The position numbers were made by a program, and so were the translations under genes. The notes beneath the pieces were generated by a model that saw only the letters and a list, made by a program, of their open reading frames with translations, had not been told where the DNA came from and did no database searches. Shown one piece after another: positions 21,283 to 45,670 of a stretch of 64,000 nt of DNA; positions within the stretch are counted from its first letter, which is position 1, and the number at the start of each line of letters is the position of its first letter. The DNA is from a virus: the IMG/VR virus record IMGVR_UViG_3300029390_000003. One strand, 5' to 3'.

Positions 21283-21300
21283 GTATCCTGTGTTATATAG
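21283..21300 (-). promoter_or_regulatory. 18-bp conserved motif, copy a, 14 nt upstream of the ligase start.
   Basis: GTATCCTGTGTTATATAG on the + strand, CTATATAACACAGGATAC on the gene strand. It is followed by gcaAGGAGGttttATG. Confidence 0.6.
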
Positions 21301-21351
21301 TTGTAGCTAATAAAGAAAGGCTTGTCGTTACGAGCAAGCCATTTCTTTCCC

Positions 21352-21369
21352 GTATCCTGCATTATATAG
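21352..21369 (-). promoter_or_regulatory. 18-bp motif, copy b (left arm of the inverted pair).
   Basis: GTATCCTGCATTATATAG. Confidence 0.6.
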
Positions 21370-21413
21370 CTAAAGAGAGAATTTTAAGCCTCCGGGATGG
21401 AGACTTTTTATAG

Positions 21414-21431
21414 CTATATTATACAGGATAC
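21414..21431 (+). promoter_or_regulatory. 18-bp motif, copy c (inverted, right arm).
   Basis: CTATATTATACAGGATAC on the + strand. Confidence 0.6.
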
Positions 21432-21442
21432 GCACATAATTG

Positions 21443-23773
21443 TCAATGCTTTTCTGAAAATTCTTTCCGTAAAAATTCCTTCAAGAACGTCCGCTTATAT
21501 GGCACTCTCGAAGTCTTTACAGCCCGATCAAGAGCGTGAGTTTCGGCGCAAATCACACAATACTTCTTGGCACGAGTGATGGCCGTATAGAGCCATTCTC
21601 TCGTCAACATCAGGTACGCAGAGTTGTCCATGCCAACAATCACATACGGAGCCTCACTGCCCTGCAGTTTATGACAACTCAGAGCATAGGCAAGTTCAAG
21701 CGTTGCCCAGATGTTATTCCCACCAAAATAATGTGGAATAAAGATCGTGCCCCACTGGTCAAAATCAACCAGAATAAAACTACTCTCAATCTTTCGGATA
21801 ATGCCACGGTTTCCATTGAACACCGGACACTTCTCTTCCTTTTTCTTTGTCTTGAGATTGTATGTGTGAAGCTCATAGTTATTCTTGTTGATAATAACCT
21901 GATCGCCCTCACGCAGAGTATACACCCTATCCTTGCCATCACCATAGATTGTAACCTTTGCTTCTGCTTGACCACGACTCGGATTCACAATTTCCTGAAT
22001 AGCATTATTAACTTCGTATGTGCAGATACTGCCACGTAGCTTCTGTGGAAGTACAATCTGAATCTTCGCACTATCATTCCCTACCTTATTATATAAGGTA
22101 CGGTACTGATTGATGATGTGGTTGAATGACTCACTTGCGTCTTTATAGATATCAAGCTCCAAATCACGAAGTTCACCACGAATCTCACTACCAGCCCAGC
22201 CATAAGGCACCAACTGCGTAGCGTTACGAACCTTAATGCTTTCCGTGATAATTGCAGACTTAGCTGCCTGACGATGGATCTTAGTCAAACGAGCCACAGG
22301 AACAACCTTAGATGCAAGCATATCCTTGAAGATGTTACACATACCAATACTCTCAAGCTGGCCGTCATCACCAATCATGATGAATCGCTTGCCGGTCTCG
22401 ATTGCCTGAATCAAGTCATAGAATAACTGAGCTCCAACCATAGAGGTCTCATCCAGAATAATAATGTCTTCTTCAAGAGGATTGTCCTTGTTATGGATGA
22501 AACCACCATTCTCGATGTCGTAGCCAAGAAGACGGTGAATGGTCTTTCCATCCTGACCAGTAATCTCCTGCATACGAGCTGCGGCACGACCAGAAAGTGC
22601 AGTCTGAGCGAAAGACTTGCCACGAAGAACCTTTAAAACACCAGCGACAACGGTACTTTTACCAGTTCCGCCGTAGCCTGTTAAGATACAGACGTTGCTA
22701 GAGCATACCTTTTTAATAGCATCTCTTTGCTCCTCAGTATACTCGATGCCAAGCGCATTCCCGGCTTCATTGATTGCAGCATCCATGTTTCGACCAATCG
22801 GCTCAACAGGTGCATCAGCCAGTCGCTTGATTTCCTTTGCGATTTTATCTTCAAGATTCCACACTCTAGTTAAAGCAAATTCCTGACGGTCATCACTCCA
22901 CCAAAGCGTTTCACGGACATCATGTAAATGGAAAAGTGCCCTTTTGATGACTTCTTGATCACCCTCGTTCAAATCAAGTTCCTTAATACAGCTATTGATT
23001 GTCTGGTTTGCCGGGATAATAGAGTTACCTTCTTCGGCACGAGCGGCAAGAAAATGCATGACGTAAGCTTCGATTCTAAATTGCGAATTGTGCTTTAAGC
23101 CCATATTCAAAGCAATAGCGTCAGCTTTTTTCCAGCCGATACCATACACATCATCAATCAGGACGTAAGGATTCTCCTCAATCTTTTTTACCAGAATGTC
23201 TGCACCGTGATACTGACGAACAAGCTTTTCAATAGCACTGGGAGTCAGACCGTACTCAATCAGTTTTGTGTACGCTTCACTGTTATCAATGTTGCGTTCA
23301 AAAGAGTCAATGATCTTTTGTGCTCGACCTTCCGTAATACCGCTAATAGTACAAAGAGCCTTGATGTCACCATTCTTGATAACTTCATACGGATTATCGA
23401 ATGCTTCATAAAGCATCTCAAACTGATGATCGGTCAAAATAAAACGGAGAAAGCTTTTTTGTTCTTCCGGGTCAGTGATCTCTTGAAACTCATTCATGTA
23501 GATGATTTTGTACTGATCACCAAACTTTTCATGATGAACATACTCACCACAGAACGAATAAGTTTTATTCATATCAAGACTAGGGACATTGCCCTTCAGT
23601 CGGAGGTCACTATATCGACTCATGATAGGATTTCCCTGCTTGACTTTTACCACCTCGGCAGAGAAAGTGGCGAAGCCGCCGGGCTCCACCTCCCTCCCAT
23701 CTTTCGGATAAAAGACTCGTTTTATCCTGATGTAGCAACGAATCATATTTTCATTAAATTTCTTATCTGCCAC
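21443..23773 (-). CDS. RecD2-like superfamily 1 DNA helicase.
   Basis: Walker A is LTGYGGTGKST. Also present are DETSMV, the C-terminal helicase motifs and a RecD-like N-terminal domain, over 776 aa. Confidence 0.8.
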   Translation of the reverse strand: MADKKFNENMIRCYIRIKRVFYPKDGREVEPGGFATFSAEVVKVKQGNPIMSRYSDLRLKGNVPSLDMNKTYSFCGEYVHHEKFGDQYKIIYMNEFQEITDPEEQKSFLRFILTDHQFEMLYEAFDNPYEVIKNGDIKALCTISGITEGRAQKIIDSFERNIDNSEAYTKLIEYGLTPSAIEKLVRQYHGADILVKKIEENPYVLIDDVYGIGWKKADAIALNMGLKHNSQFRIEAYVMHFLAARAEEGNSIIPANQTINSCIKELDLNEGDQEVIKRALFHLHDVRETLWWSDDRQEFALTRVWNLEDKIAKEIKRLADAPVEPIGRNMDAAINEAGNALGIEYTEEQRDAIKKVCSSNVCILTGYGGTGKSTVVAGVLKVLRGKSFAQTALSGRAAARMQEITGQDGKTIHRLLGYDIENGGFIHNKDNPLEEDIIILDETSMVGAQLFYDLIQAIETGKRFIMIGDDGQLESIGMCNIFKDMLASKVVPVARLTKIHRQAAKSAIITESIKVRNATQLVPYGWAGSEIRGELRDLELDIYKDASESFNHIINQYRTLYNKVGNDSAKIQIVLPQKLRGSICTYEVNNAIQEIVNPSRGQAEAKVTIYGDGKDRVYTLREGDQVIINKNNYELHTYNLKTKKKEEKCPVFNGNRGIIRKIESSFILVDFDQWGTIFIPHYFGGNNIWATLELAYALSCHKLQGSEAPYVIVGMDNSAYLMLTREWLYTAITRAKKYCVICAETHALDRAVKTSRVPYKRTFLKEFLRKEFSEKH

Positions 23774-23785
23774 TTTATAACCCTC

Positions 23786-26700
23786 TTACGCTATCTCTCT
23801 ATCATGTAGCCACTGCTTGTAAGGTTTGAAGTCGTTTGCAATAACGTGTGATTCATCTTCCTTCTTTCCAAGCACAGCTACCTGACTTCCCTTTACAATC
23901 AAATCCTGATAATCTGACAAGATTCTCGGCCATACTGTCAACTCAATGATACCATCGCCAGAATACAGATTCACAAACGCAAACTGCATACCAGTCTTTG
24001 TTTTCTTCTTTTGAATCTTTGCGATAATACCAACCAGTACACAGGAGTCACCAGTTTCAAGCTCAGAGAAATCCTTAATGTATTCGTATGCCTTTTCAAA
24101 CGGATTCTTATCGATAATAAACGTCTGCAACGTCTGGAACTCCCAGAATTGCTCGTCCTTCAAATACTTCTCTGACTGCTCGGCCATGTACGCTTCCTTT
24201 TTCTTGAGTTTTTCAGTTTCATGTACGACACGGCGCTTTTCATTATAGATTCGTAGGACGGTTTCTTTATCAACCTTCTTACCAACCTTATAATGCTCTG
24301 TATCAATATCCCACTTACTCAGCAAAACTGCCTTGGTAGGAAGTGTACTGACTGGTTTAAACTCAGATTGTTCCAAACCGCTGGCAATGTACTTTTCCAA
24401 GAATATTCGTTTGTTTTTTGTAGGAATCGCACCGGATTTGACCAACGCAATGATCTGCGCTTTCGTTGCACGAACACGACTCGTGAAATCATCAAGTCCC
24501 TTAAATTTTCCATTCCTATCTCGTTCTGCAATGATAGTCTCAGCAAGTGTATTGCCAATACCACCGATAGCAGACAAGCCAAATAGGATTTTACCATTTG
24601 ACACAGTAAAATCCATGCCGGAACGATTGATACTCGGAGGAAGAATCTGAATATCAAAGCTGCGTGCGTCCACCATAATCTTATTGACCTTACCGACCTT
24701 TGCTTTATTCAGGTTCAGCATAGCCTTAAAGAACGCAAGCGGATGATGGGCTTTCAAGTATGCGGTCTGAAGACAGATGACGGCGTATGCTTGAGAATGA
24801 CTAGCGTTGAAGCCGTAGCCGCCCTTCGTTGACAACTCGTTACAAATATACTCGGCGGTTGCTTTATCGTATCCATTTGCAAGAATTTCATCGTGAAGAA
24901 GTTCTACCTCTTCCTTGACCTTCTCAGGTTTCTTCTTTGCTAAGCACTTACGCATTCTATCAGCACCAGCATCGCTTCGGCCACCAAAGACCTTTGTGAG
25001 CTTCATACTCTGTTCCTGATAGATGTTCACGCCATAGGTGCTGCGGAAAATTGGTTCCATATCAGGATGGAAATAATGAATGTGTTCTGGATGATACTTG
25101 CAATCAACGTATGTAGGAATAGACGGCATTGCGTCAGGACGATAAAGAGCAATCAATGCTGACAGCTCCTCAATCGACCTCGGCTGAAGCTGTGCAACCA
25201 GATCCTTCATACCAGACGACTCAATCTGGAATAGATTGTCTGTCCGGCCAGAACAAATCAAATCATAGGATGCCTTGTCATTTTCAAACTCAGGATTGTT
25301 AATGTCAATTTCCCAGTCTGGAATATTGTCCTCACGCTTTGCCTCATCAATAGCCACAAGCGATGCAACGCCAAGAATATCAAACTTAACAAGTCCAATT
25401 TTCTCGTCCATCACCTTATCAACAGAGATAACGTGCTCTCCATCGGCACCGTGTCGGATACCGATATACTCATAATAAGGATGTCGGCAGACAATAACAC
25501 CGCCAGCATGGATACCATACCCTCGTGGGCGACCATTGATGTGCTCTGCAATATCAAGCAGTTCTTTGTATCTCGGATTCTCAGCCACTTCTGGATTTGC
25601 TTCAAGACAATCCTTCCATGTCTTTTGAACGAATTTCTCGCTGATTTTTCTAATCTCAGCATACGGGAAACCGAGCACCTTGCCAACATTCTGAATCGAA
25701 GTGACCGGAGTGGTGTACACGATATTCATAACCTGAACTACTCGATCTTCACCGTACTTCCGTGTCAGATACTCGACAACCTTGGCACGATCACTGACAT
25801 CTACATCAACGTCGGGAAGGTCTTTTCGTTCAATGGTAAGGAATCGTCCGAAATCAAGCTCGTATTTGATGGAATCAAGTTGCGTAATGCCAATCAGGTA
25901 ACATACAAGTGAACCAGCGGCAGAACCACGACCAGGGCCAACAATGACATCATTTTTCTTACACCAGTTGATGTAATCAACCAGAATCAAAAAATAATCA
26001 CAGAAGTCTTTCTTCTCAATGACAAACAGCTCGTCATCAACACGCTTACGATAGATCTTCTGCTTTTCTACATCAAACTTGTCAATGCCGCGTTTCTTCC
26101 ATCCCTCTTTCACAAGGTCTTTTAAGTAAGCTGCTGAGTTGGAATACTGTGGAGGAATCTCGATTTTGGGAAGTTCAGGTTCGTGCCAAGGCATATCCAC
26201 ATAATCACATAGGTCAGCAATCTCATCGGTATTGTTGATACACCATTCTGCCGCATCATATCCAATCTGACCGTCAAGGACTTCATGTTGCTCCCTGCGA
26301 GACATAAAGTAGCATCCTTCGTAGATTTCTGCGGCAGTTTCTGTATCATGAGCAATTCTCAGAAAGTAGTCTTGATAATACAGAGCTTCTTTTGTGGCAG
26401 CATGAACATCGTTTGTGACGACTACTTTTGTATGAGTGTCGTTTGCCAACCGCATGATTTTCTGATTGTATTTTGCTTGTTCACTATTTGCATGAGCCTG
26501 AACCTCAAGATAATAGTGAGGGAATAAACTCTTATACTCTTGAACTAGCTTGACACAAGTGTCATAATCATCCGTTTTGGACAGTCTACTCGCCAAACAA
26601 GCAGACAGGATAATCAAATTATTCGTATCTTCCTTAGCGATATCCTCTTTTGTGATACGAGGACGGCTATAAAAGCCATGAAGATGACCGAGTGTAGATA

Positions 26701-27002
26701 AGCGATTAACCGTCTGACGACCAGCCTCATTCTTTGCGATGATGATCAGATGCCAGTATTTACTGTTCTTGTCCTTTACTTCCCTATCCTCGCACTCATA
26801 TGCCTCGATACCATAAAGAAGCTTTACGTCAGGATACTTGTCTTTTAGTTCTGAGTAATACGGCCAGCTTGTCACCTCACCATGTTCCGTAATGGCAATA
26901 GCTTTCAAGCCAAGTTCCGATGCTCTTTTTAGATTTTCTTCAGGAGAAGAGAACCCATCGAGCAAGCTAAAAGTATGAGTGCGTATGTAAACTGCTACTC
27001 AT
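23786..27002 (-). CDS. dnaE: DNA polymerase III alpha subunit (DnaE-type, PHP domain). The N-terminus is broken by a 1-nt frameshift at an A4/T4 run.
   Basis: The PHP start MSSSLHTHSYF is read from the ATG at 27002 (ribosome-binding site AAAGGTGGTG 7 nt upstream). It runs into TAG, and the +1 frame continues as SLLDGFSSPEE...ITEHGEV. The rest of the 1059-aa body is Pol III alpha-like. Confidence 0.85.
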
Positions 27003-27268
27003 CAGGCAACACCACCTTTCATACTATTTAAATTCATTCTGTCTGCTCCTTATCTTCGATAGACACTCTCAAAGTTACAGTCTTACCGTCCTTTGTTGTC
27101 CATGTGTATCCACCAAAAGTTCTATTGTTGAACTGAGCTTCAGAAAGAAGCCAATCACGAACTGCCTCGATAGCTTCATCCGTGACACGAGTTTTATCCT
27201 TCCATTCGGTTCCATTCTTTTTAACAGTTCCTGCGTAAATACCAAACATACCACAGCTCACATGATAT

Positions 27269-28030
27269 TCACTCATTCGTATTCACCTTATCTCCAAACT
27301 TAATAATATCGTCGAAAAGCATCACATAGTCATCGGTGTACTTGTTGCCATGGAAATGGCCGAAGTACCAGAATGGTTTACAATCGTTAGGATAACATTC
27401 GTATATATTATCAAAGAATATTTCAGTTGACTGGTCTACTGTGCTTTGATCAATACCACCGATAAACAATTCAGTTGGAATGAACCGAAATGGACAGGTA
27501 TGCGTGAGCATAACATCAATATCATCGATTTGAGGGTCATGTGTAATATTCCAGATCTTTTTCTTAGTCTTCTCATTAGGCTGTTCGTCCGGCCACCAGT
27601 TCCATCCACGTTCCAACCGATAATATTTATCTACAGAATATGCTCCGCCGCAAACAAGACAGTTCAGAATTTCCCTATCAGCAAGAATCTGGTAAACTTC
27701 GCCATCAATAGCAAAATACTGATTGGGATAATGTGAATCATGCCACACCTTACCACAAATATCTCCACTGATTTCCTTTGTCCTATAACCATCCTTACGA
27801 GACGGGCGGCGTTCGTGATTTCCATGAATACAGAATAAATTCGCAGGGATGTCCGCAGCAATGGTCTTAACTCTCCATTCGTTGATGTTATCCTTACCAT
27901 AATAGTTTAGACCAACATCACCAAGACAGATAATCCAATCATTCTTTCCAAGATTGTGTTTAATGCAAAATTTATTTAACTCTAAGAGACGATTAAAATC
28001 GCCATGAATATCGCCTGTAATGTAAACCAT
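27269..28030 (-). CDS. Calcineurin-like metallophosphoesterase.
   Basis: The motifs GDIHGD, GDVGLNYYG, GNHE and GHFH are present. Confidence 0.7.
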   Translation of the reverse strand: MVYITGDIHGDFNRLLELNKFCIKHNLGKNDWIICLGDVGLNYYGKDNINEWRVKTIAADIPANLFCIHGNHERRPSRKDGYRTKEISGDICGKVWHDSHYPNQYFAIDGEVYQILADREILNCLVCGGAYSVDKYYRLERGWNWWPDEQPNEKTKKKIWNITHDPQIDDIDVMLTHTCPFRFIPTELFIGGIDQSTVDQSTEIFFDNIYECYPNDCKPFWYFGHFHGNKYTDDYVMLFDDIIKFGDKVNTNE

Positions 28031-28202
28031 TCATTCACCCCTCTCATAAACTCGCCAATGCCATGTGCTACCATCGCCCGGATAAAACCTATCGCAAAAG
28101 TCCTCAAAGCGACATCCTTCGCATGGATCATCTTTTGATAAATCTATCACTGGATGGCTTTGGCATTCTGCGATAAATTCTTTAACGTCTGCTTCAAACT
28201 GT

Positions 28203-28550: not shown

Positions 28551-28551
28551 A

Positions 28552-31313: not shown

Positions 31314-31322
31314 TGTAGTTCC

Positions 31323-32846: not shown

Positions 32847-32868
32847 TCATCCACCTCCCTTTATACTT

Positions 32869-33633
32869 TTAATACTGAATTTTGTTGTTTGGATACAGTT
32901 CATTGAACATATCAAAAACTTTTCTCAGGCCAAGACCTTCCTTACTGGGCACCCAAATTTTCTTCGGGTTCCAATTCTTCCATACACCGTCGTATTCAGG
33001 TGCTATCGCATCATACGCAGGGTTATCCACCCACTGACCACCATTCATACTGTACTCGTACTTCTTAGGATCAAGTTCGGCAAGCGTCAAGAATCTGTTA
33101 TCATTTTTGTTGTGAGCTCCAAATCCGCAGAATGTGCATCCGGTGCGATCACATCCAGTACAACACAGTGGAGCTTCTGGCTTATCACTCGTGGGAACGA
33201 TATCGCCATAAACATCAGCGATTTGAATTCCTGACTGTTTGATGAAAGCGAGTACATCTTGCTCAGTCCAAAAACTCATAGGCTGACTAGACGGCGACTT
33301 GCTATCAAAGGCATTACACCCATGTCGAATCCACGCCTGTTTGCGAACACGGCTTTCATCTGTCAAAGTTCCAATAATTGGTTTCCGCTTAGTTGCCCTT
33401 GCGTACTTCTTCATTGGACTTTTCTTCATTACTGAGCAACAGTAATGAGAAATTGCGAATGGAAGTTCTTGTGTCGCTGGAAGCCATTTCTCTTTGTTGA
33501 ACATCGATTTCGTTCCAGCTTGCATTTCAGCTCCCGGTTCATTTCCAAGTAGAATCGTTCGTCTATTTCCCTGAAATACTCCTGTTTTATCATAAAGCCA
33601 CGGGTTGCTAAAGACACCTCCCGGACTGTTCAT
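32869..33633 (-). CDS. PAPS-reductase-family protein, C-terminal segment (out of frame with the N-terminal segment).
   Basis: GTLTDESRVRKQ (the RxES..R motif that follows a PP-loop) and the Cys cluster CCTGCDRTGCTFCGF are present. This frame is open all the way back to the (CT)n repeat. Confidence 0.65.
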   Translation of the reverse strand: MNSPGGVFSNPWLYDKTGVFQGNRRTILLGNEPGAEMQAGTKSMFNKEKWLPATQELPFAISHYCCSVMKKSPMKKYARATKRKPIIGTLTDESRVRKQAWIRHGCNAFDSKSPSSQPMSFWTEQDVLAFIKQSGIQIADVYGDIVPTSDKPEAPLCCTGCDRTGCTFCGFGAHNKNDNRFLTLAELDPKKYEYSMNGGQWVDNPAYDAIAPEYDGVWKNWNPKKIWVPSKEGLGLRKVFDMFNELYPNNKIQY

Positions 33634-33674
33634 CCTTAAACCCAGAAGTTCCTGTCTTTTCCTGAGAGTTGTTC

Positions 33675-34091
33675 TTAACTCTCTCTCTCTCTCTCTCTCA
33701 TGGTGGCTGCGCCGCTATTTCTGATTCGTCTAGCGTAATAAATCGCTTCTGCCACTTCTTTAGAGATAAGAGGATAACCATATGTAGAGACAACATCACT
33801 AAATCCCATCTTGGGATAAACAAAAACCGCATCCGCATCTCGTGCAAACTTCTGGATAGACGAGTATTCCAACCCCGTGTTACTGAACACAAGCGGAACA
33901 TCTGGAAACAGCTGTTTCGTCAGATGAGCAAGTACAGTAGAATCCTTACCACCAGAAAAACTGACATACACGCCACCGTCGTAGTGCATATACCATTCTT
34001 GGATGCGATTTTGAGTGATCTGAATCTTTCGCTCAAGAGGAAGTGCTTGAAGCTCCTTCAATCTTTGAGCGTCATGAACTGTATTATCCAT
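33675..34091 (-). CDS. PAPS-reductase-family protein, N-terminal PP-loop segment. It ends inside the (CT)10 repeat.
   Basis: VSFSGGKDSTVLAHL...VFSNTGLEY matches the PP-loop ATP-pyrophosphatase pattern of the PAPS reductase family. The ORF terminates as ...MRERERES* inside the dinucleotide repeat. Confidence 0.7.
   Translation of the reverse strand: MDNTVHDAQRLKELQALPLERKIQITQNRIQEWYMHYDGGVYVSFSGGKDSTVLAHLTKQLFPDVPLVFSNTGLEYSSIQKFARDADAVFVYPKMGFSDVVSTYGYPLISKEVAEAIYYARRIRNSGAATMRERERES
33679..33699. repeat. (CT)10 dinucleotide microsatellite inside the PAPS-reductase-like gene.
   Basis: ctctctctctctctctctctc on the + strand. It is read as RERERE in the N-terminal ORF. Confidence 0.95.
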
Positions 34092-34105
34092 TTACCAACC
34101 TCTTT

Positions 34106-35946: not shown

Positions 35947-36035
35947 ATATGTAAATTCCTCCGTTTTATCAAAATTATTTATCGCACCTACGATATTTAT
36001 TTTGGCGTAAATACGATAAATCTTTTCTTTTATAA

Positions 36036-36053
36036 GTATCCTGTGTTACTTAG
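36036..36053 (-). promoter_or_regulatory. 18-bp motif, copy d, about 90 nt upstream of the Sak4-like ATPase.
   Basis: GTATCCTGTGTTACTTAG. Confidence 0.5.
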
Positions 36054-36066
36054 CTAAGGCTAAAAA

Positions 36067-38744: not shown

Positions 38745-40221
38745 TTATCCTCTTTGCTTTTCTGGAAAATGCTTCTTAGTTACTGCAACGCAAAAGCTAT
38801 CAATTTCTGACCCCCAAATGGCAGTACCTTCACCATATGTGCTTTGAAATACTAACGGAAAGCCGCCGATCCCATCGAAGAGGCTACCAAGAGTAGGATT
38901 CTCACCGATATACGGTTTCATCTTCTGAAAAATCCAATACCATTGCGGTAATGCGATTGAATTGCCGAGTGCCTTATAACGAACTGCGTCAGAAGTTTTA
39001 TGCTTCTTTTCGTTCTCATCAATCCAGTCACCGATATCTGTCCATCCATCAGGGAACCCCTGAAGCCGTTCATCCTCCAAAGGAGTCAAACGGCGAACAA
39101 TCCATCGTAGATTCTTCGTTTCTTTTTCTGTAATCAGGTCAGTAGCGTCCTTGTAATCACGAGATTTCATCGTACTAGCCTGTTCACTTTCCTTGTATTC
39201 ACCAATGCGTTGCATCGCAAAGGCTTTCTTCTCAATGACCAGTGGCATATTATTGCCACCAGTTCCCCACTGAGCAGTACAAGTCGGACTTGTATCACTC
39301 AGCTGAGTGTATCGAGCGTCTTGACTGTGGCTCTCAAACACCACCGGCGAAATCTTTTGTTTTAAATTATGTAAAGAGGGATTTTCTGCCAAGCAAATCA
39401 GCGTCTGGTCTTGTAACGTAGAAATCGTTGCGCTCAATTCAGTTTGAACCAGAGCGCCTTTACCGCCACCTTCACATCCAGAACGGATTTTTAGAGTGTA
39501 GGCTGCAGGTTCTGTGCATCGAGTCGAAGTCTCTCGATGGTCTGACTCCAATACTCGTCCAATTCCTTCTCTTCCAGACCTTCTTGTTCCTTCACTTTCT
39601 GCACCACCTGTGACAGAGTTCCTGGATTCCACCATTCGATCATATCCAGCAACGCTTGCTTCAGGAGTTCGGGCAAAGGTTTTCCACGCCGGGATGCTCT
39701 CACAAGAATCCCCTGACATGCTCGTGCGCTCAAATAGAATTTCTGAGGCACGTTGTCCTCCAAAATCCATGACAAGCGCGATTCTCTGGCGACGCTGGGC
39801 GACTCCCCAGTATTTAGCGTCGAACAATCTCCATGCAATAGACCATCCATTACCGGAAATCGCTCCAGATTTTGCCCACTTTCCGTTCTTCCCTGAAGGT
39901 CGAGGAATTGAAACGTCTGGCTCGACAATGCGTGCAAATCTTTCCAACACACATCTGAAGTCTTCACCTTTGCTTGAGCTGAAAGCTCCTCTGACATTTT
40001 CCCAGATTGCGAATTTTGGATATTCTCCATTAGTGGCCTCCCTCATTTCTGTAATCACACGAATCATTTCAAGGAACAATCCAGAGCGTTCACCAGCCAA
40101 ACCTTCACGTTTACCGGCCTGACTCAAATCTTGGCATGGACTGCCTCCTGTGATACAGGAAACCGGTTCAATCTGCCACCCATGAAGTTGTGTAATATCT
40201 CCGTAATGCTTCAGTTTTCAT
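38745..40221 (-). CDS. DNA (cytosine-5)-methyltransferase with circularly permuted motif order.
   Basis: From N to C the motifs run GGSPCQ (IV), ENV (VI), QRRQR (VIII), a roughly 200-aa variable region, RRLTPLEDERLQGFPDGWT and GNSIALP (IX/X), then FDGIGGF (I) and SEID (II) at the very C-terminus. The ATG at 40221 is 1 nt out of frame (A4 run). A CTG 8 nt downstream of AGGAGG is in frame. Confidence 0.75.
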
Positions 40222-40232
40222 TCCTCCTTTTC

Positions 40233-40250
40233 GTATCCTGTATTATATAG
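40233..40250 (-). promoter_or_regulatory. 18-bp motif, copy e, 12 nt upstream of the methyltransferase ATG.
   Basis: GTATCCTGTATTATATAG. On the gene strand, CTATATAATACAGGATAC gaaAAGGAGGaATG. Confidence 0.6.
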
Positions 40251-40347
40251 CTAAAACTCAGAAAATGAGCGAAAAAATAATAGACGTATCAACGTCATGT
40301 TATTTCGTCGCCTATAAAACAAAAGTTCTAGCAGGTTTTATGTACGC

Positions 40348-40424
40348 CCTATCGGGCTGGTGGGACAGGAGAGATTCGAACTCCCGACCAAGCGGTTATG
40401 AGCCGCCAGCTCTGACCAACTGAG
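40348..40424 (-). tRNA. tRNA-Met (anticodon CAT); could be a lysidine-modified tRNA-Ile instead.
   Basis: The cloverleaf was folded by hand. The acceptor stem is GGGATAG/CTGTCCC, the D-stem GCTC/GAGC, the anticodon loop CTCATAA and the T-loop TTCGAAT. CCA is encoded. Confidence 0.8.
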
Positions 40425-40661
40425 CTACTATCCCATGCAAACGCCGACTTTCGTCGGCGCGATGCCAGCGGAGGAATCGAACCTCATCTCTCGGTGTTTC
40501 CGAGCGCTTTTACCATTAAGCTATCCAGCCGTATACCTCAGAATTTAATTCTCACTATCCAAGCTACGTCGCGTTCCAATATGATCACTCTTGGCAACCA
40601 TGTCGTAACATATAGGTTCCTTTCGGCTCTGAGTAACCGGTGCAGCGTAAGGGGCTGCGTG

Positions 40662-40737
40662 TGGAGCGACTGACGGGGGACGATCCCGCAACATTCAGAT
40701 TGGAAATCTGACGCTCTGCCAATTGAACTACAGTCGC
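40662..40737 (-). tRNA. tRNA-Gly (TCC).
   Basis: The acceptor stem is GCGACTG/CAGTCGC, the anticodon stem TCAGA/TCTGA and the loop TTTCCAA. The T-loop is atypical. CCA is encoded. Confidence 0.7.
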
Positions 40738-41094
40738 ATAAGAACCAACCTAGCAACTGGCATCACTAGGCTGGGATGCTCGGCTTGCAAAGGCACGCTG
40801 CACTCTTTCGAGCGAGCCGAGAATAACGTACATGGATAATTTCGTTAGCCCCTTTCTGGGTGGTATCTTGCACAGGCGCGGCCGGATCTGACCGCTAAAG
40901 ATCCTACCCATACAAGATTGGAGCAGCGAAAGGTAGTCGAAACCTCATCCTCAGCTTGGAAGGCTGATGTACTAGCCGTTGTACGACCGCTGCATGAAAA
41001 CCCAGCTTACAAAGCACTACTGCACCATCACTGGCGAGCTGGGAATAATAGTGGTCAAAGGAGTTCAACCATGAACAACAACGATTCATGACCG

Positions 41095-41176
<82 letters not shown>

Positions 41177-41181
41177 ATAAA

Positions 41182-41252
41182 TTGCGCCAACAGGGGTCGA
41201 ACCTGTGATGGAGGAGTCAAAGTCCTCTGCCTTACCGCTTGGCGATGGCGCA
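41182..41252 (-). tRNA. tRNA-Gln (TTG).
   Basis: It has a U1:A72 acceptor pair as in bacterial tRNA-Gln. The anticodon stem is GAGGA/TCCTC, the loop CTTTGAC, and the T-arm ACAGG-TTCGACC-CCTGT. Confidence 0.8.
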
Positions 41253-41320
41253 TCATATACCCAGCTTACTGGAGAAGCATCCTACTGCCTTACTGCTAAG
41301 GAGCTGGGAATAATAGGAAT

Positions 41321-41396
41321 TGGTCTGAGCGACAAGATTTGAACTTGCGGTCCCCTGTTCCCAAAACAGGTGCGATGCCAACTTCGCTACGCCCAG
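41321..41396 (-). tRNA. tRNA-Pro (TGG).
   Basis: It has a C1:G72 pair as in bacterial tRNA-Pro. The anticodon stem is CCTGT/ACAGG and the loop TTTGGGA. CCA is encoded. Confidence 0.8.
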
Positions 41397-41403
41397 ATAT
41401 AAA

Positions 41404-41486
41404 TGCGCCCGGCGGGACTTGAACCCGCACGCCATCTCTGGCAGAAGATCTTAAGTCTCCTGTGTCTGCGATTCCACCACGGGCGC
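41404..41486 (-). tRNA. tRNA-Leu (TAA), type II.
   Basis: The acceptor stem is GCGCCCG/CGGGCGC and the anticodon loop CTTAAGA. The variable arm forms a hairpin (GCC-AGAGAT-GGC). The T-arm is GCGGG-TTCAAGT-CCCGC. Confidence 0.75.
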
Positions 41487-41686
41487 ATATAAAAGAAGAT
41501 CAGAAACAGCCAACCATTCGTTTTACATTCTAGTTTTCTGGCGAACCGAAGAGTATTTATCCGATAGCTAGTCGGCTTACACCTTATTTCTCTTCTTGTC
41601 TGGCTTGACGTCCTTTACCGGTATGACGTCTTTCCGGTCGCCAATGTACGGCCAATCCCCGAACGAGCTAGAACAACTGATCTTCA

Positions 41687-41771
41687 TGGTAGGGATAATC
41701 GGATTTGAACCGATACGTCTTTCGACACTTGAGTTTGAATCAAGCGTGGCTGCCAATTTCACCATATCCCC
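41687..41771 (-). tRNA. tRNA-Leu (CAA), type II.
   Basis: The acceptor stem is GGGGATA/TATCCCT and the anticodon loop TTCAAAC. The variable arm forms a hairpin. The T-arm is ATCGG-TTCAAAT-CCGAT. CCA is encoded. Confidence 0.8.
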
Positions 41772-41825
41772 ATATTGCCGGTCTTTCCCGGCTGTCAGCC
41801 CCGCGCAGGGCATTTTCGGAGGAAG

Positions 41826-41872
41826 AAATATCACGATATTTCGTTAATTATTCTAACGAAAATCACGATAAA
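41826..41872. promoter_or_regulatory. Direct-repeat / inverted-repeat / direct-repeat element between the Pnkp-like stop and tRNA-Leu(CAA).
   Basis: tATCACGATAtttcgttaATTATTCtaacgaaaATCACGATAaaatg. A 9-bp direct repeat flanks an 8-bp inverted repeat (TTTCGTTA / TAACGAAA). Confidence 0.4.
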
Positions 41873-41888
41873 ATGTCTATTTTTTAAT

Positions 41889-44108
41889 TTAGCTCTTCTG
41901 CTGACTTGCGTAGAACTCATTCCGCAGCTGAATAATACCCTTCTTGCAGAAAGACTCTTGATCTTTCTCTCGTTGTTCACGCATCCAACCATAGAACAGG
42001 TTATCCTCGGCAGTAAACAACTTTGCGGTATTTTCATAATAGCCACGTTTTTGAACGCTCTGCATGACACCACGCAAGAACTTCCAGTGCTTATAATACG
42101 GAAGCTTCAGCTTAAACATGAAATTATTGCTGTCTCGCAAAACAAAGCCTTCAACGTGTTCAAAACCATGATGCAGATAGTTCTCGTTCATGACTTCTTC
42201 GTACCAAGGATAGAATTCACTCCAGTTCTCAAAGGTTTTAACCTTCTCCTTAATCTGCAGATGACACTTCTCGGCTACACGCTTCAAATCATCATAATCC
42301 ATTACACTGAAATTCATATCATTTGCAATAATATCCAGCAAAACAATGTGCGGTTTCTTATATTCGATGATATGTGCATCATTCACAGGATCAATCACCT
42401 CGAAGATGATGGAGCCATTCTCTTTTGCAACTTCTTTCAGATTCTTACGATCTTCATCAGAAGTCGTATCCATGAGAATCTTTCGGAACATATCTGCAAA
42501 AGGCCCATCAGGAGTGGATTTACTTGCAATGAACAGACCATCCTGTTCTGCATCATACGAAATGATACCAAGAAATCCGTTCTCTTTTAGATATGCAGTC
42601 ACCGGGAACTTCAAAGTGTTCTGTAGGTTTCCAATTCTCGTTTCATTCCGCTCATCAACCGCAAAGAACTTATCATAGCTTCGAGCTACAATCTTATTCG
42701 TCTTTGTGTTAATGAACAACCCTCTTGCTTTGGTAGAAACCTCATCCCAGTGCTTCTTATAAAATGCTTCACGAGAGAAGTTGAAAGAAGAAATATCTCC
42801 GAATCGCTTCTCAAACACATATTTGCTTTGACGCATCTTACTAACAAGTTCTGCGTTATCGAACTCAGTTTTCATTTCAACGGCAGTTTCAGTCTTTGGC
42901 TCCTCTTTTCGGAATACATCATTCTTGGTTTCTACGCATTTGATAGGCTGACCGTGTTCAAGCTCCACACAACGAAGATATCCACCAAACTCGATTTTGC
43001 CTTCAAGATTGTAGCACCGATGACCCATATCAATAGGAACATCCTGTACATTTCGATGGCCGAAGATCTGAATATAGCTATCCGGCATCGACTTTTCCCA
43101 AGACTCAGCCACGGTCAGTATATCAGGATAGCGGCCTACGCCTTTAATCATCTGATCCGCAGACACGAACGGAAGAAAATAAGGAAGATAGCTCAGACCA
43201 CCGTGACTTACGAAATACCGCTTACCATCATACTCAAAGTAGACACACTGGCCGACTCTGGAATAGATCTTACGAGCAGTGTTCTTGTCAATACCGGCTT
43301 TAAAGAGCTGCGGACGAGTGTAGTTTGCAAACTCTTCACTTTGAACCGGTTTATCACGCCCCCACTTGTTCAGCCAATGCTCGTGGTTCCCTTCCAAAAG
43401 GATCACATTCTTGCGGTTGTTATTTACAACATCACACAAGAACTTGAATACCTCAACGTTTTCGATGCCACGATCGAGATAATCACCAACGAAGATATAA
43501 AGCTCGTCGTCCTTCATCTCACCAAGGTATTCACTCAAGCAGGTATAGCAGCCATGAATATCACCGATGATATGTATCTTTTTCCACTGGTTAAAGTCAT
43601 TCGGGCAGTAGTTCAAATCGGACATCACATCCGTAGTAGAAGGAAGAACTGTCACGCCAGAAGGAACTTTTTGAGTAGCAAACCGAGCGTACATCTTATC
43701 AATAGCCGCTTCAGGAACTCGCTTTAGCCATTCTCTCTGAGCGTTTCTTCGTTTGCATTCCTCGATCGGAAGGTCCGTCATATCAATAACATACATCCGA
43801 TAACGATACTGTTTTGCAAGATTCTTATAACAATTCATTTCGACCGTCTTGGAATTCGTTGCATCAATCACAGTAAACTCGCCATGGCTCATCCGCACCT
43901 CAAGCAGTTTGAAAAGCATCTCCCATACAACATCATCATTCTGCTGAGAAATCTCCATCTGCCCATCAGGTGTTTCCTGTGCGCTCTGGCACATAAGGCG
44001 AAGTGTATCAACACTCAATACGTACTGCTCAAGATTATGCTCTTTAATATAGGTGGACTTCCCGCAACCGGGTGCTCCACGGAACAGTAAAAGTGTTCTC
44101 ATCTGCAT
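41889..44108 (-). CDS. Pnkp-like RNA end-healing and sealing enzyme: P-loop polynucleotide kinase, calcineurin-type phosphatase, and a C-terminal nucleotidyltransferase (ligase-like) domain.
   Basis: The N-terminus has Walker A (FRGAPGCGKST). The middle has the binuclear phosphoesterase motifs IIGDIHGCY, GDYLDRG and GNHE. The C-terminal 350 aa carry a KxNG lysine motif (AYLKENGFLGII) like ligase/adenylyltransferase motif I. The domain order matches bacterial Pnkp. Confidence 0.7.
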   Translation of the reverse strand: MQMRTLLLFRGAPGCGKSTYIKEHNLEQYVLSVDTLRLMCQSAQETPDGQMEISQQNDDVVWEMLFKLLEVRMSHGEFTVIDATNSKTVEMNCYKNLAKQYRYRMYVIDMTDLPIEECKRRNAQREWLKRVPEAAIDKMYARFATQKVPSGVTVLPSTTDVMSDLNYCPNDFNQWKKIHIIGDIHGCYTCLSEYLGEMKDDELYIFVGDYLDRGIENVEVFKFLCDVVNNNRKNVILLEGNHEHWLNKWGRDKPVQSEEFANYTRPQLFKAGIDKNTARKIYSRVGQCVYFEYDGKRYFVSHGGLSYLPYFLPFVSADQMIKGVGRYPDILTVAESWEKSMPDSYIQIFGHRNVQDVPIDMGHRCYNLEGKIEFGGYLRCVELEHGQPIKCVETKNDVFRKEEPKTETAVEMKTEFDNAELVSKMRQSKYVFEKRFGDISSFNFSREAFYKKHWDEVSTKARGLFINTKTNKIVARSYDKFFAVDERNETRIGNLQNTLKFPVTAYLKENGFLGIISYDAEQDGLFIASKSTPDGPFADMFRKILMDTTSDEDRKNLKEVAKENGSIIFEVIDPVNDAHIIEYKKPHIVLLDIIANDMNFSVMDYDDLKRVAEKCHLQIKEKVKTFENWSEFYPWYEEVMNENYLHHGFEHVEGFVLRDSNNFMFKLKLPYYKHWKFLRGVMQSVQKRGYYENTAKLFTAEDNLFYGWMREQREKDQESFCKKGIIQLRNEFYASQQKS

Positions 44109-44123
44109 CTCCCTTTCTAATAG

Positions 44124-44141
44124 GTATCCTGTGTTATATAG
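44124..44141 (-). promoter_or_regulatory. 18-bp motif, copy f, 16 nt upstream of the Pnkp-like start.
   Basis: GTATCCTGTGTTATATAG. It is followed on the gene strand by tattagaaAGGGAGatgcagATG. Confidence 0.6.
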
Positions 44142-44152
44142 TTAGCATGTTA

Positions 44153-44180
44153 AAATGAAGGGGCCGAAGCCCCCTGTTTT
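44153..44180 (-). terminator. Bidirectional rho-independent terminator after the 44180..45106 gene.
   Basis: On the minus strand, the stop codon TAA is followed by aaaCAGGGGGCttcgGCCCCttcatttt. The + strand reads GGGGCcgaaGCCCCctgttttt. Confidence 0.7.
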
Positions 44181-45106
44181 TAATTTTCATGGAAATATTC
44201 AACCCAACCTTTATATCCTTGCCGGAAACTAAGATAGGCAACTTTACTGCACTTTCTTCCGATAATGTCCGCAAGAGGACCTTTACCATTTCCGAAACTA
44301 AGTTCTGCAAGATTAAATTTTGGATGAGTTTTACAGTAGTTATAAACCTTGATATACTCACAATTTCTGGCTAAATATCTTTGATCTAAGGTTTTTGAAT
44401 GATGCCTTTTTTCGAGGATATCGTTCAACCTCGAAAAATAGACATGAATTGAAATTATAGACGTCTTTGGATCACTGTTTACACCGGGTTTATCCTTCGT
44501 TTTGCGTAGGATATAATCGCCATTCATGACATAAAATGTTCTATAACCGCTCTTATTGGGGGCATCATACTGTTTCATCTCGTAACATTGCTTGATAATA
44601 TCCATTAACCTTGCGTCAACATCAGTCTTATCAAGAACGGTATTAGATTCAAAATCCACATCGTTAATTGTTAGATTAGAAATCTCATCGGAAGTAAGAC
44701 CAATCCAGTACAAAACAGCAATTACGTTCATACGAATCTGATATGGCTCTTCGTACTTATTTAAGAAGTCAACAAATTCGTCAACCGACGCAAAATAACT
44801 GTCATTGTACATATCATCTGCGCTTACATCGCTCTCTGAAAAGTCAGCCAGATCATACATGCTTGTTTCGTTTTCACTTTTGATGTAGCCTGTGATTATT
44901 GACTTCACATTTTTAAACGAACGACTCGAATTCACCCAATTATATTTGGCAAACATCTTTACGAAATCATCTTTTGTGAAGTCAAACAACTCATACCCAC
45001 GCTCGGCCTCGTAATCCATGACGTGACGCATCGTCGATGCAACAAACTCACCGCTTCTATCAGAATACTTTTCGGCAAAAGCTTTGATTTTTTCTTCAGT
45101 AAGCAT
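44180..45106 (-). CDS. Hypothetical protein.
   Basis: This 308-aa ORF has a clean stop followed by a terminator hairpin. No confident domain was found. Confidence 0.3.
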   Translation of the reverse strand: MLTEEKIKAFAEKYSDRSGEFVASTMRHVMDYEAERGYELFDFTKDDFVKMFAKYNWVNSSRSFKNVKSIITGYIKSENETSMYDLADFSESDVSADDMYNDSYFASVDEFVDFLNKYEEPYQIRMNVIAVLYWIGLTSDEISNLTINDVDFESNTVLDKTDVDARLMDIIKQCYEMKQYDAPNKSGYRTFYVMNGDYILRKTKDKPGVNSDPKTSIISIHVYFSRLNDILEKRHHSKTLDQRYLARNCEYIKVYNYCKTHPKFNLAELSFGNGKGPLADIIGRKCSKVAYLSFRQGYKGWVEYFHEN

Positions 45107-45159
45107 AGTGGCACACTCCTTCTTATTATATGTAGTGTACCATTAAACCTTATAAAAAA

Positions 45160-45579
45160 TCAAGCAAATGCGGCAAAATTCTGAAATTCCATGGTATGTT
45201 GTACGCCGCTCAGGAATGCTGCAAGCAAAAACGGTTCATCCTTGCATCTTGCCATTGCGATCATATTCATCTGACGCTCCGACAAGACACCAAGTTTTTT
45301 AATGAACTGTCCTTTGTTAAGTGTATCAGTCTCTTCACATAGAACGATACTATCAACCTCTAGGAAATCACAATCTTCCTTTGAGAGTAGAACATGAACC
45401 GGAGAGCGCTTGTATATTCTGGAAGACAACGGATTCCCTTTAATTGTTGGACTAAAGAAGTTGCGCTTATTGTTGCTCGTCACAACGAACGGTCGAATAC
45501 CGCGCTGCTGATGACCTGTCGCATTGGATAGATCAACCAACCAAACCTCTCCGACCTTTGGGTCAATATTGTTGTCCAT
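45160..45579 (-). CDS. MazF/PemK-family endoribonuclease-like protein, with no antitoxin partner evident.
   Basis: The N-terminal pattern GEVWLVDLSNATGHQQRGIRPFVVTSNN and the later SIVLCEETDTLNK...GVLSERQMNMI match the PemK/MazF fold signature. Confidence 0.55.
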   Translation of the reverse strand: MDNNIDPKVGEVWLVDLSNATGHQQRGIRPFVVTSNNKRNFFSPTIKGNPLSSRIYKRSPVHVLLSKEDCDFLEVDSIVLCEETDTLNKGQFIKKLGVLSERQMNMIAMARCKDEPFLLAAFLSGVQHTMEFQNFAAFA

Positions 45580-45618
45580 AGTCTTTCTCCTCTATAATAG
45601 TGTAGCTCCGTTCCATAG

Positions 45619-45636
45619 CTATATTATACAGGATAC
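45619..45636 (+). promoter_or_regulatory. 18-bp motif, copy g (inverted orientation), upstream of the MazF-like gene.
   Basis: CTATATTATACAGGATAC on the + strand. Confidence 0.5.
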
Positions 45637-45670
45637 CTTTACAGAAGTCAATAGGTTTTCAAAAATATTT

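Follow-up and report, generated by a model that had tools for sequence, protein, structure and literature searches.

What recognises a short, near-invariant DNA element that recurs between the genes of a large temperate phage, often just ahead of a start codon? The window analysed here, a stretch of 64,000 nucleotides, is part of a ~135-kb prophage (40% GC) that is very abundant and is integrated beside groESL of a Faecalibacterium. Its plan is SPβ-like: the phage is temperate, its early and late arms diverge, and the late arm is headed by a YonO homologue. The original prediction described an 18-bp motif and read it either as a promoter, used by a phage-specific polymerase or sigma factor, or as an operator to which a phage regulator binds. 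The prophage encodes a candidate protein for each reading, a YonO-like RNA polymerase and an SroF/MrpR-family repressor, but no sigma factor gene was found in the window. As set out below, the evidence leans towards the operator over the polymerase promoter.

Results

The element is a real but longer box than first described. The aligned copies read TAG-CTA-(AT-rich 5-6)-A-Y-ACAGGATAC, an asymmetric element of ~21 bp, as conservation continues beyond the 18-bp motif to a TAG 5' of CTA. The AT-rich centre is its least conserved part. The sequence GTATCCTGYRTTATATAG is found exactly four times in the window (21283, 21352, 40233 and 44124), and copies with two mismatches or fewer at 21414(-), 36036 and 45619(-) bring the total to the predicted seven. 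Shuffling of the window gave expectations of 0.00 and 0.14 matches, and the next best match within it has five mismatches. As also predicted, all seven copies are wholly intergenic, in a window that is 6.6% intergenic (P=5.7e-9). The 9-mer core ACAGGATAC was exclusive to the motif sites and never occurred in coding sequence, where frequent copies would have spoken against the original prediction. The box was also the top-ranked word in an unbiased intergenic word search.

Five of the window copies are direct; they come behind terminators and head four operons (Pnkp-Rnl, methyltransferase, Sak4-DnaE-RecD2 and ligase). They end 11–21 nt before the start codon and 2–8 nt before the Shine-Dalgarno (SD) sequence, closer to it than the 12–16 nt first given. 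The genes downstream are those originally named: an ATP-dependent DNA ligase, a C5 methyltransferase, a Pnkp-RNA ligase fusion and a Sak4-like ATPase with a 90-nt leader. The copy CTATATAACACAGGATAC at 21283..21300 (-) lies 13 nt 5' of the DNA ligase ATG, right behind a terminator hairpin. Its tandem partner at 21352..21369 (-), (ttag)CTATATAATGCAGGATAC, is followed by a terminator hairpin; the next direct copy is 69 bp away and the inverted copy 62 bp. The hairpin between the tandem copies (21312..21348 (-), -16.6 kcal/mol, z = -3.9) has a U-rich tail, and a second one (21386..21406 (-), -11.1 kcal/mol, z = -4.3) occupies the 44-nt spacer from the inverted to the first direct copy. At 36036..36053 (-), (ttag)CTAAGTAACACAGGATAC heads the Sak4-primase-RecJ-DnaE-RecD2 operon; the centre of this copy, AGTAAC, cannot serve as a σA -10 element. 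At 40233..40250 (-), (ttag)CTATATAATACAGGATAC lies behind the hairpins that end a tRNA cluster and 11 nt 5' of the methyltransferase ORF region, with a small hairpin with a U-run upstream (40283..40296 (-)). The second copy of CTATATAACACAGGATAC, at 44124..44141 (-), is 21 nt 5' of the Pnkp-Rnl ATG and 17 nt past an intrinsic terminator (GGGGGCUUCGGCCCC with a U-rich tail, 44159..44175 (-)), which adjoins it upstream and closes the candidate repressor operon.

None of these five copies has a -35 element, as originally stated, and their bases at -11 and -7, the positions critical for σA, are variable. For both reasons their use by host σA is unlikely, and they are not σA promoters. No other recognisable promoter was found for the large replication operons. 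Most direct copies are preceded by a T-rich tract, because terminator tails lie there.

The two inverted copies are organised differently. Here the claim that there is no -35 element fails, as TTGACA or TTGACT precedes, with a spacer of exactly 17 nt, a TATAAT within the motif. At 21414..21431 (+) the gene strand (-) reads GTATCCTG-TATAAT-ATAG, with the TATAAT at 21418-21423 and the TTGACA at 21441..21446 (-); this -35 hexamer overlaps the RecD2 stop codon and is kept in relatives. At 45619..45636 (+) the gene strand reads TTGACT(45646-45651)-N17-TATAAT(45623-45628), and this promoter drives a MazF/PemK-like gene (45160..45579 (-)), the first in its operon, and the candidate repressor gene. 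A third site outside the window shares the identical register, TTGAC(A/T)-N9-GTATCCTG-TATAAT. At the inverted sites conservation is 100% at the motif positions that give the σA -11A and -7T, and variation is found in the promoter spacer 5' of the box. By sequence, the inverted copies are consensus σA promoters in which the box overlies spacer, -10 and +1.

Counting beyond the window, one of the proposed checks, gave five further copies, hence 12 sites altogether; the seven in the window are conserved in >100 related contigs. The 12 sites belong to the early/middle region or stand ahead of the RNA polymerase gene; a search of 26 kb of late-arm sequence in 80 relatives found no box. All nine copies outside σA core promoters are co-oriented with local transcription, on both arms. 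They lie between terminator and SD, mostly directly behind the terminator, and end 11–39 nt from the start codon. Back-to-back pairs occur at three sites, with a spacing of 61–64 bp (mostly 62–63 bp, ~6 helical turns). As the spacers of the three pairs are unrelated in sequence, the fixed spacing suggests a constraint at the protein level.

A candidate for the cognate protein is encoded between two box copies (44124 and 45619). It is a 308-aa tyrosine-recombinase-fold protein (~44180-45106, also given as 44183-45106, (-)). A Pfam scan matched it to MrpR_N_CB (E = 6e-4), with the C-terminal MrpR domain below threshold, and its homologues carry precomputed PF22823 (MrpR_C_cat) assignments. The best structural matches to its AF2 model, which is of moderate quality (pLDDT 67, TM 0.25–0.33), were the phi3T SroF-DNA complex (E = 1.8e-4), SroF-Sar, MrpR and YopR, all ahead of Cre and Tn1549 Int. 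The protein lacks the first catalytic Arg, as does the rest of its family. Its domain matches and predicted fold indicate that it belongs to the MrpR/SroF (YopR) family. Repressor alleles among relatives diverge down to 71% identity.

Discussion

What is known of this family makes the candidate attractive. MrpR of SPβ has its binding site, the 15-bp SPBRE, at ~10 dispersed promoter regions, among them yonP, which lies upstream of yonO, and the promoter that drives MrpR's own operon (PMC10516654). SroF is a monomer on its DNA site, a long, asymmetric, genome-distributed box of which it reads 24 of 26 bp (bioRxiv 10.1101/2025.11.27.690993). By analogy, the 308-aa protein would bind the box described here. 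We consider there to be an even chance that the box is the dispersed operator of a monomeric SroF/MrpR-like master repressor encoded at ~44180-45106.

Such a repressor, bound at 45619, 21414 and the third site outside the window, where the box covers the spacer, -10 and start of σA promoters, would occlude host RNA polymerase. Negative autoregulation is implied, because one of these promoters drives the operon of the repressor itself. We infer that the direct copies act as roadblocks, at which a DNA-encircling clamp would stop read-through from units expressed in the lysogen or, alternatively, initiation by a phage polymerase. It would act likewise at the direct copy outside the window that heads the YonO-like RNA polymerase gene. 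As the evidence leans to an operator, the original remark that inverted copies favour protein binding still holds.

Several observations count against the operator. A directional promoter is a simpler explanation for the co-oriented direct copies, as a monomeric repressor has no obvious need for orientation, and the large replication operons are left with no other promoter that we could recognise. The SPβ boxes all have one orientation relative to genes, whereas here the promoter-overlapping copies and the others are opposed. The conserved blocks of the box are invariant among relatives while the repressor alleles drift, and no repressor-box co-variation was found across these alleles.

The first alternative, which is possible though we think it the less probable, is that the box is the promoter of the phage's own YonO-like two-barrel single-subunit RNA polymerase. 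Host σA polymerase would then transcribe short, terminator-bounded early units. The phage enzyme would start directionally at each direct copy, melting the AT-rich centre and initiating in or just after CAGGATAC. These starts would serve the operons for repair, methylase, replication and nucleotide metabolism, the polymerase gene itself and the late arm behind it. At the inverted copies, which would be promoters pointing antisense, occupancy by the phage polymerase would silence the σA promoters that they overlap, the one of the repressor operon included. Such an enzyme is encoded: a 927-aa YonO homologue encoded just outside the window, with a box ~30 nt 5' of its start codon, matches Pfam RdRP PF05183 (54 bits against a gathering threshold of 23.8). 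It is similar to YonO (BLASTP E = 5e-23, with DFDAD aligned to DNDGD) and, by tblastn to annotated yonO (E = 1e-17 to 1e-20), 37–38% identical to Clostridium phage c-st and Enterocloster phages. The nine co-oriented copies, with their position behind terminators, missing -35, variable -11/-7 and lack of another visible promoter for their operons, fit this explanation well. In size and information content the box resembles the promoters of T7-type single-subunit phage RNA polymerases. If the explanation is correct, the box would be the first promoter consensus for this polymerase class.

A promoter for the phage polymerase, however, needs an extra assumption for the three antisense copies, all set in one register within consensus σA promoters, and antisense transcripts from them would meet no visible terminator. 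The most conserved block would be 3' of the AT-rich region, an unusual arrangement for promoter specificity, and 26 kb of late genes have no box. The P_YonO region of SPβ shows no similarity to the motif, and PMBT24, whose polymerase is 38% identical, has no analogous motif. The dispersed repeat known from SPβ is the repressor's, and YonO starts at a single mapped site (PMC5467207, PMC10516654). Nothing contradicts the promoter outright, because the sequence of the YonO promoter is undefined (PMC5467207).

Both proteins might use the same sites. The 21 bp would then be the repressor box, laid at direct copies over a less conserved, -35-less promoter made of the T-tract and TATAA-like centre and used by the YonO-like or a modified host polymerase, and one repressor would silence σA-dependent and phage-polymerase-dependent units alike. 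This would reconcile operator-like inverted copies with promoter-like direct ones in a phage that encodes both proteins, and a T-rich tract is usually in place. We nevertheless regard it as improbable, being less parsimonious, with no independent sign of a second conserved element and with T-tracts that are terminator tails.

That the boxes are inversion sites for a tyrosine recombinase, making 44124-45636 an invertible or mobile 1.5-kb MazF-recombinase cassette, or RNA-level pairing elements forming RNase III sites, is highly improbable: the copies at 44124 and 45619 are mutually inverted around a recombinase-fold gene and homology among relatives breaks directly past the box at three sites, but no inverted arrangement was seen in ~100 relatives, both flanks of both sites are constant, the protein family lacks its first catalytic Arg, the box is not a two-arm core site, pair spacers of 44–45 bp are too short for inversion, and the inverted copies would be absent from RNA because they are upstream of their own transcription start.

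As a repressor operator, the box would be the functional counterpart of the SPBRE/SroF box of the Bacillus phages SPβ and phi3T. Like this prophage, these phages are temperate and large (~130 kb), with a YonO-type RNA polymerase and a repressor of tyrosine-recombinase fold without catalytic residues. In both systems the boxes are long and asymmetric (15–26 bp), with ~10–12 near-identical copies, which are dispersed over the early arms in intergenic/promoter regions and also precede the polymerase gene, and in both they cover the σA spacer/-10, once at the repressor's own operon. σA promoters of the SPβ-like phage Goe12 contain the box within their spacer and -10 (TAGACA-N6-AAAAATATGTATATAAt), and two of its copies directly adjoin an SD. 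The box sequences are unrelated (TAGCTATATAAYACAGGATAC versus AAAAATATGTATATAA), the repressors are alike at the family/fold level only (21% identity over the N-terminal domain), and the host is Faecalibacterium rather than Bacillus. Unlike in SPβ, most copies here have the opposite orientation and no σA promoter, and back-to-back pairs are spaced at 62–63 bp. No arbitrium genes were seen in the prophage regions that were read.

The direct copies also resemble T7-type promoters and P_YonO, being ~20 bp, near-invariant, directional, gene-adjacent and without -35 behind terminators, in a phage that likewise encodes its own polymerase. YonO-type enzymes are two-barrel polymerases unrelated to T7 RNA polymerase, however, and unlike T7-type promoters three copies are antisense in σA promoters and none is inside the late arm.

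The stoperators of mycobacteriophage L5 gp71 and the operators of phage P1 C1 are asymmetric sites of 13–17 bp, bound by a monomeric repressor at many dispersed copies in a large temperate phage. L5 stoperators occupy short gaps between genes and follow the direction of transcription on both arms, and one of them overlaps the early promoter. Their repressors are from different families (HTH proteins), and L5 has more sites; its promoter-overlapping site is not reported to be inverted relative to the others, and terminators are not known to be coupled to the sites. Lastly, the 'promoter early stem-loops' (PeSLs) of T4-type phages are mobile regulatory cassettes in which σ70 early promoters are combined with stem-loops. 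As with PeSLs, conserved regulatory sequences here mark junctions at which relatives carry different genes. In this prophage the junction is the box itself, with homology ending directly past CAGGATAC, and by analogy the box may have a role in recombination at these breaks.

A discrete intergenic box

In an unbiased, mismatch-tolerant search of the intergenic words of the window, the box was the top-ranked word. The pattern GTATCCTGYRTTATATAG had 4 exact matches in the window, and 7 when up to 2 mismatches were allowed, against shuffled-sequence expectations of 0.00 and 0.14. These seven lie exactly where the original prediction had placed them: five direct copies on the minus strand (21283, 21352, 36036, 40233 and 44124) and two inverted copies on the plus strand (21414 and 45619), the minus strand carrying every gene of the window. 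The class is discrete, as the next-closest match in the window had 5 mismatches. All seven copies are wholly intergenic, as had been claimed, in a window whose intergenic share is 6.6% (P≈6e-9), and the 9-mer ACAGGATAC was restricted to motif sites, with zero occurrences in coding sequence. The box has about 21 conserved positions and no dyad symmetry.

Five further sites outside the window bring the total to 12. Nine of these run with local transcription, on both arms, and the remaining three (45619, 21414 and position 7360 of L196, a stretch outside the window) are inverted, each placed within a σA promoter in one common register. Back-to-back pairs occur at 3 sites with start-to-start distances of 61-64 bp, mostly 62-63 bp, and spacers unrelated in sequence, and the copies of a tandem pair are 69 bp apart. 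No LexA boxes were found near the box sites, and an Rfam scan for known RNA families returned tRNAs only.

Conservation in related phages

A box scan of IMG/VR recovered at least 115 stretches among the matches listed, all from one family of ~125-140-kb human-gut phage contigs, and the neighbouring Pnkp-Rnl gene was 88-100% identical in 80 loci. When 569 motif hits were clustered by the sequence around them, they fell into the same syntenic sites and a few more that lie outside the window. Position profiles showed two invariant blocks, TAG-CTA and A-Y-ACAGGATAC, separated by a variable AT-rich centre.

Homology among the relatives often stops right after ...CAGGATAC, with different genes beyond; such breaks were seen at sites 44124, 40233 and 36036 (relatives L116-L195). 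Because homology breaks directly after this sequence, and the downstream genes differ, the box marks mosaic junctions, and it is possibly a recombination hotspot for a Sak4-type annealase. The homology search with the ligase was filled by relatives >94% identical, leaving no distant context. A 25-kb megablast against INPHARED gave tRNA-sized matches only, and DnaE was at most 34% identical to its counterparts in known phages.

A Faecalibacterium prophage

The left end of the window encodes Tn916-type Xis and Int, and on scaffolds of 240-498 kb Xis/Int is followed by groES/groEL and further host genes. The GC content is 56-60% in the host flank compared to about 40% in the phage, and the GroEL adjoining the attachment site is 90-94% identical to named Faecalibacterium GroELs. 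Together these features indicate that the window is part of a ~135-kb Faecalibacterium prophage, as judged from sequence. The junction itself, in which Xis/Int adjoins host groES/groEL at the prophage end, lies at 264-1689 and in the stretches L199-L201. On one of these scaffolds (L201), host genes enclose just the terminal ~4 kb (FolD, Xis, Int and a few ORFs), which suggests a remnant or a separable integrative module. A search with the Pnkp protein in GTDB genomes for the host found nothing. A perfect 21/21 box, including the TAG extension, is present in host-like DNA (56% GC) of a Faecalibacterium MAG (CAKSWG010000006.1; stretch L357, 3648-3668), about 30 nt 5' of, and in inverted orientation to, a 3-dehydroquinate dehydratase-like gene. 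This copy in the host genus is unlikely to have arisen by chance.

The early region of the window contains many small genes. Its replication/repair region encodes DnaE, RecD2, RecJ, primase, Sak4, ligase and Pnkp-Rnl, together with NrdD/G, ThyX, dUTPase, a methyltransferase and a tRNA cluster. No sigma factor or RNA polymerase (RNAP) was found in the window when essentially every ORF, small ORFs being concatenated, was scanned with Pfam and PHROG. Two adjacent ORFs (33678-34091 and 32872-33633, within 32872-34091) match different halves of a PAPS-reductase domain and may be a split or frameshifted gene. In metagenomes of the human gut the phage family is extremely common, individual proteins being indexed in hundreds to thousands of data blocks, and the phage would lysogenise a keystone gut genus.

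Two other palindromes were observed. The tRNA-cluster promoter (41850-41879, TAGACA-18-TAGAAT) has its -10 within the palindrome TTTCGTTA-gaataat-TAACGAAA, bordered by TATCGTGAT repeats, which may be an operator for a different regulator. The small palindrome ACGTWGATACGT has 3 window matches at ≤1 mismatch compared to 0.32 expected. Two exact matches are intergenic (10827-10838 and 40284-40295), one of them just upstream of the 40233 box, and a further copy lies beside a TATAAT in the late arm (stretch L274, ~8095-8110).

Two classes of copies

On the gene strand the five direct copies read (T)TAG-CTATATAAYRCAGGATAC. They end 2-8 nt 5' of a strong Shine-Dalgarno (SD) sequence and 11-21 nt 5' of the start codon, except for the window's Sak4 copy at 36036, which has a 90-nt leader. 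Stable hairpins with U-rich tails directly precede four of the five (z-scores -2.6 to -4.3). At the direct sites in relatives, the equivalent of -11 is A in 77% and G in 23% of variants, and the equivalent of -7 is T in 47% and C in 52%. Because these positions vary, the direct copies appear not to be σA promoters. Across the 12 sites, 7 direct copies have no overlapping or adjoining σA promoter.

The inverted copies at 21414 and 45619 are identical (GTATCCTGTATAATATAGCTAT), and at each of them a spacer of exactly 17 nt separates an upstream TTGACA or TTGACT from the TATAAT within the box. The promoter at 21446-21418 is TTGACA-17-TATAAT, and that at 45651-45623 scores 11/12 against the consensus, so that the box spans the spacer, -10 and start site of a consensus σA promoter. 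In relatives, the motif positions that supply the essential -11A and -7T at the inverted sites are 100% conserved. The -35 is also kept, whereas the spacer nucleotides 5' of the box vary. This combination argues that the inverted sites are real σA promoters plus an additional selected element. The lack of a -35, originally asserted for the motif as a whole, therefore holds for the five direct copies, which have none at any spacing (0/5), but is wrong for 21414 and 45619, because these sit in consensus σA promoters. Over all sites, association with σA promoters comprises the three core-overlapping copies and a pair that flanks a σA promoter in a divergent region.

Some direct sites have features of their own. 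At 21301-21369, direct copy 21352 is followed by a strong terminator hairpin, kept in relatives, and then by a further copy; if the box were a promoter, this unit would yield merely a ~45-50-nt RNA. The 90-nt Sak4 leader (35947-36035) is specific to the window and contains the words TTTATCGT(A/G)ATTT, which resemble the palindrome region of the tRNA-cluster promoter. The C5 methyltransferase ORF (38745-40221) lacks an in-frame ATG: the ATG at 40221, 3' of its SD, follows an A4 run and is shifted out of frame by one base. Its start is likely the CTG 9 nt 3' of GGAGG, and relatives have a GTG start at the same point. The Pfam match starts at model position 74, and AdoMet-binding motif I appears to be missing.

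Two candidate binding proteins

A 308-aa protein (44183-45106) is encoded between the 45619 and 44124 boxes, with the box-overlapped σA promoter driving its transcription. It has an N-terminal MrpR_N_CB match (E = 6e-4), and PF22823 is precomputed on the identical protein and about 70 homologues. Foldseek with its AF2 model (pLDDT 67, low TM-scores) gave the phi3T SroF-DNA complex, SroF-Sar, MrpR and YopR as the top four, ahead of Cre and Tn1549 Int, and the family as a whole has another residue in place of the first catalytic Arg. The protein is thus assigned to the MrpR/SroF family, with a tyrosine-recombinase fold that is probably non-catalytic. Neither of its distant relatives P0320 and P0325 (35-37% identical) was present in IMG/VR or JGI, and the family alignment diverged too strongly for a search pattern to be designed. 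A MazF/PemK-like gene (45163-45579) is co-transcribed just upstream of this repressor-like gene; an interaction of SPβ-group phages with host MazEF has been reported (PMC10516654, PMC10769878).

The second candidate lies outside the window, on the leftward arm, where Pfam and homology identify a gene for a 927-aa YonO-like RNAP (13285-16065 of stretch L212). The protein scored 54 bits against Pfam RdRP (PF05183; threshold 23.8), and matched annotated YonO by tblastn (E = 1e-17 to 1e-20) and BLASTP (E = 5e-23 over 524 residues). Its catalytic motif is intact, with DFDAD aligned to DNDGD of YonO. A direct box copy lies about 30 nt upstream of the gene, so that both this upstream region and the repressor-operon promoter carry a copy. 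The genes that follow are ClpP-like, PhoH-like, a metallophosphoesterase, a second tRNA cluster (5 tRNAs, L274 11084-11832) and large late ORFs. In 80 relatives, the late genes that follow the RNAP gene were free of boxes over 26 kb; late genes are the class transcribed by the polymerase in SPβ. A single copy heads the RNAP gene and the late arm, which is compatible with one long operon as in SPβ.

The leftward arm starts at a 2.4-kb non-coding region upstream of the early operon, where a back-to-back box pair surrounds the σA promoter TTGAAT-17-TGgTATAAT. The same region contains four CTAGCAAGGAAC iterons about 8 kb past the right end of the window (1869-1945 of stretch L197), which overlap and follow the promoter TAGACT-17-TATAAT. 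The iterons may mark an origin or a partition site, or may form an operator array for a further regulator.

Operator or promoter

What does the box do? The sequence evidence points to a real, strongly selected regulatory element. The Faecalibacterium prophage that carries it is very abundant and has control logic resembling that of SPβ. Between the two functions first proposed, promoter for a phage polymerase and operator, we favour the latter: at about even confidence, the box is an operator for putative binding by the SroF/MrpR-type repressor. A single protein would then suffice at all twelve sites. An operator would account for the long, asymmetric and dispersed box, the SPBRE-like inverted copies, a repressor operon under its own control, the copy that precedes the RNAP gene, the copy-free late arm and the fixed spacing of the pairs. 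Against it stand three observations: the nine other copies are strictly oriented, they lie between terminator and SD, and the replication operons have no other visible promoter.

These same features are explained naturally if the box is instead the promoter of the YonO-type two-barrel single-subunit RNAP, a reading that we hold as possible but doubtful. The direct copies are directional, have no -35, follow terminators and head operons that lack another promoter, and the phage encodes a polymerase with an intact catalytic motif. However, only nine copies are co-oriented with genes, and the three antisense copies in σA promoters (45619, 21414 and L196 7360) would need an ad hoc role. If true, this reading would provide the first promoter consensus of the ancient YonO-type class, bipartite TAGCTA / AYACAGGATAC with twelve natural instances, and the three boxes back-to-back with host σA promoters would let the phage enzyme displace host RNAP on takeover. 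Dual use of the box as operator and promoter is improbable.

Sequence variation was of little help here. Rare core variants were sporadic and confined to single sites, with no co-variation across sites within a genome. Variants of the box centre that seemed to track repressor alleles (a 71%-identical group) were in fact mosaic haplotypes that also occur with other alleles. The blocks of the box stay constant while the RNAP (80-100% identity) and the repressor (71-100%) vary, and these tests appear neutral between operator and promoter. Recombination or RNA-level functions are very improbable, and the ideas of an invertible segment and of RNase III were rejected: no inversion of the flanked segment was seen in about 100 relatives, the protein lacks the first catalytic Arg and is predicted to be non-catalytic, and the inverted copies would not be in the RNA because they lie upstream of their own start site.

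With two candidate binding proteins and twelve natural sites, the choice between operator and promoter is directly testable. As an operator, the 21-bp box would be a precise handle for predicting the operons silenced in lysogens. It is also a concrete candidate for the promoter of a YonO-type RNAP, undefined since 2017.

Comparison with known systems

The box presumably works like the stoperators of mycobacteriophage L5 or the C1 operators of phage P1, but is not a member of either family. YonO is the single-subunit two-barrel DNA-dependent RNAP of SPβ, for which one dependent start site was mapped and the promoter sequence stated as still to be determined (Forrest et al. 2017, PMC5467207); we found no later definition in the literature. 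The box has no similarity to the SPβ P_YonO region. In the corresponding region of the SPβ-like phage Goe12 (stretch L270, 9880-10110), bracketed by the published primer, there are two TAATNNTCATTTATGARGGT copies about 190 nt apart. The Enterocloster phage PMBT24 had no analogue of the box, its only candidates being σA -35 words and an unrelated 19-mer. It does have six copies of TCAATTCGTAAAGTAAAA, some followed by terminator hairpins (L269/L271). Both TCAATTCGTAAAGTAAAA and TAATNNTCATTTATGARGGT are possible candidates for further signals specific to phages. In PMBT24 and Goe12, as here, the RNAP stands at the head of the late arm.

In SPβ the 15-bp SPBRE is bound by MrpR at about ten scattered promoter regions, among them the promoter of MrpR's own operon and yonP, which lies immediately 5' of yonO (PMC10516654). 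SroF acts as a monomer on a long asymmetric box that is distributed over the genome, of which it reads 24/26 bp (bioRxiv 10.1101/2025.11.27.690993). The SPBRE copies that we extracted from Goe12 occupy the spacer and the -10 in σA promoters (TAGACA-N6-AAAAATATGTATATAAt) and all run with their genes, two of them abutting the SD. The box described here is similarly near-invariant and asymmetric (~21 bp compared to 15-26 bp), with twelve dispersed copies, among them one at the repressor operon and one at the RNAP operon. It differs in that its sequence is unrelated, the repressor is only distantly related and the host belongs to the Clostridia rather than the Bacilli, and in having a second class of non-promoter copies in the opposite orientation, which is unusual. 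The SPβ-style toolkit of a monomeric recombinase-fold repressor, dispersed long boxes and a YonO-type RNAP would thus extend from Bacillus to the Clostridia.
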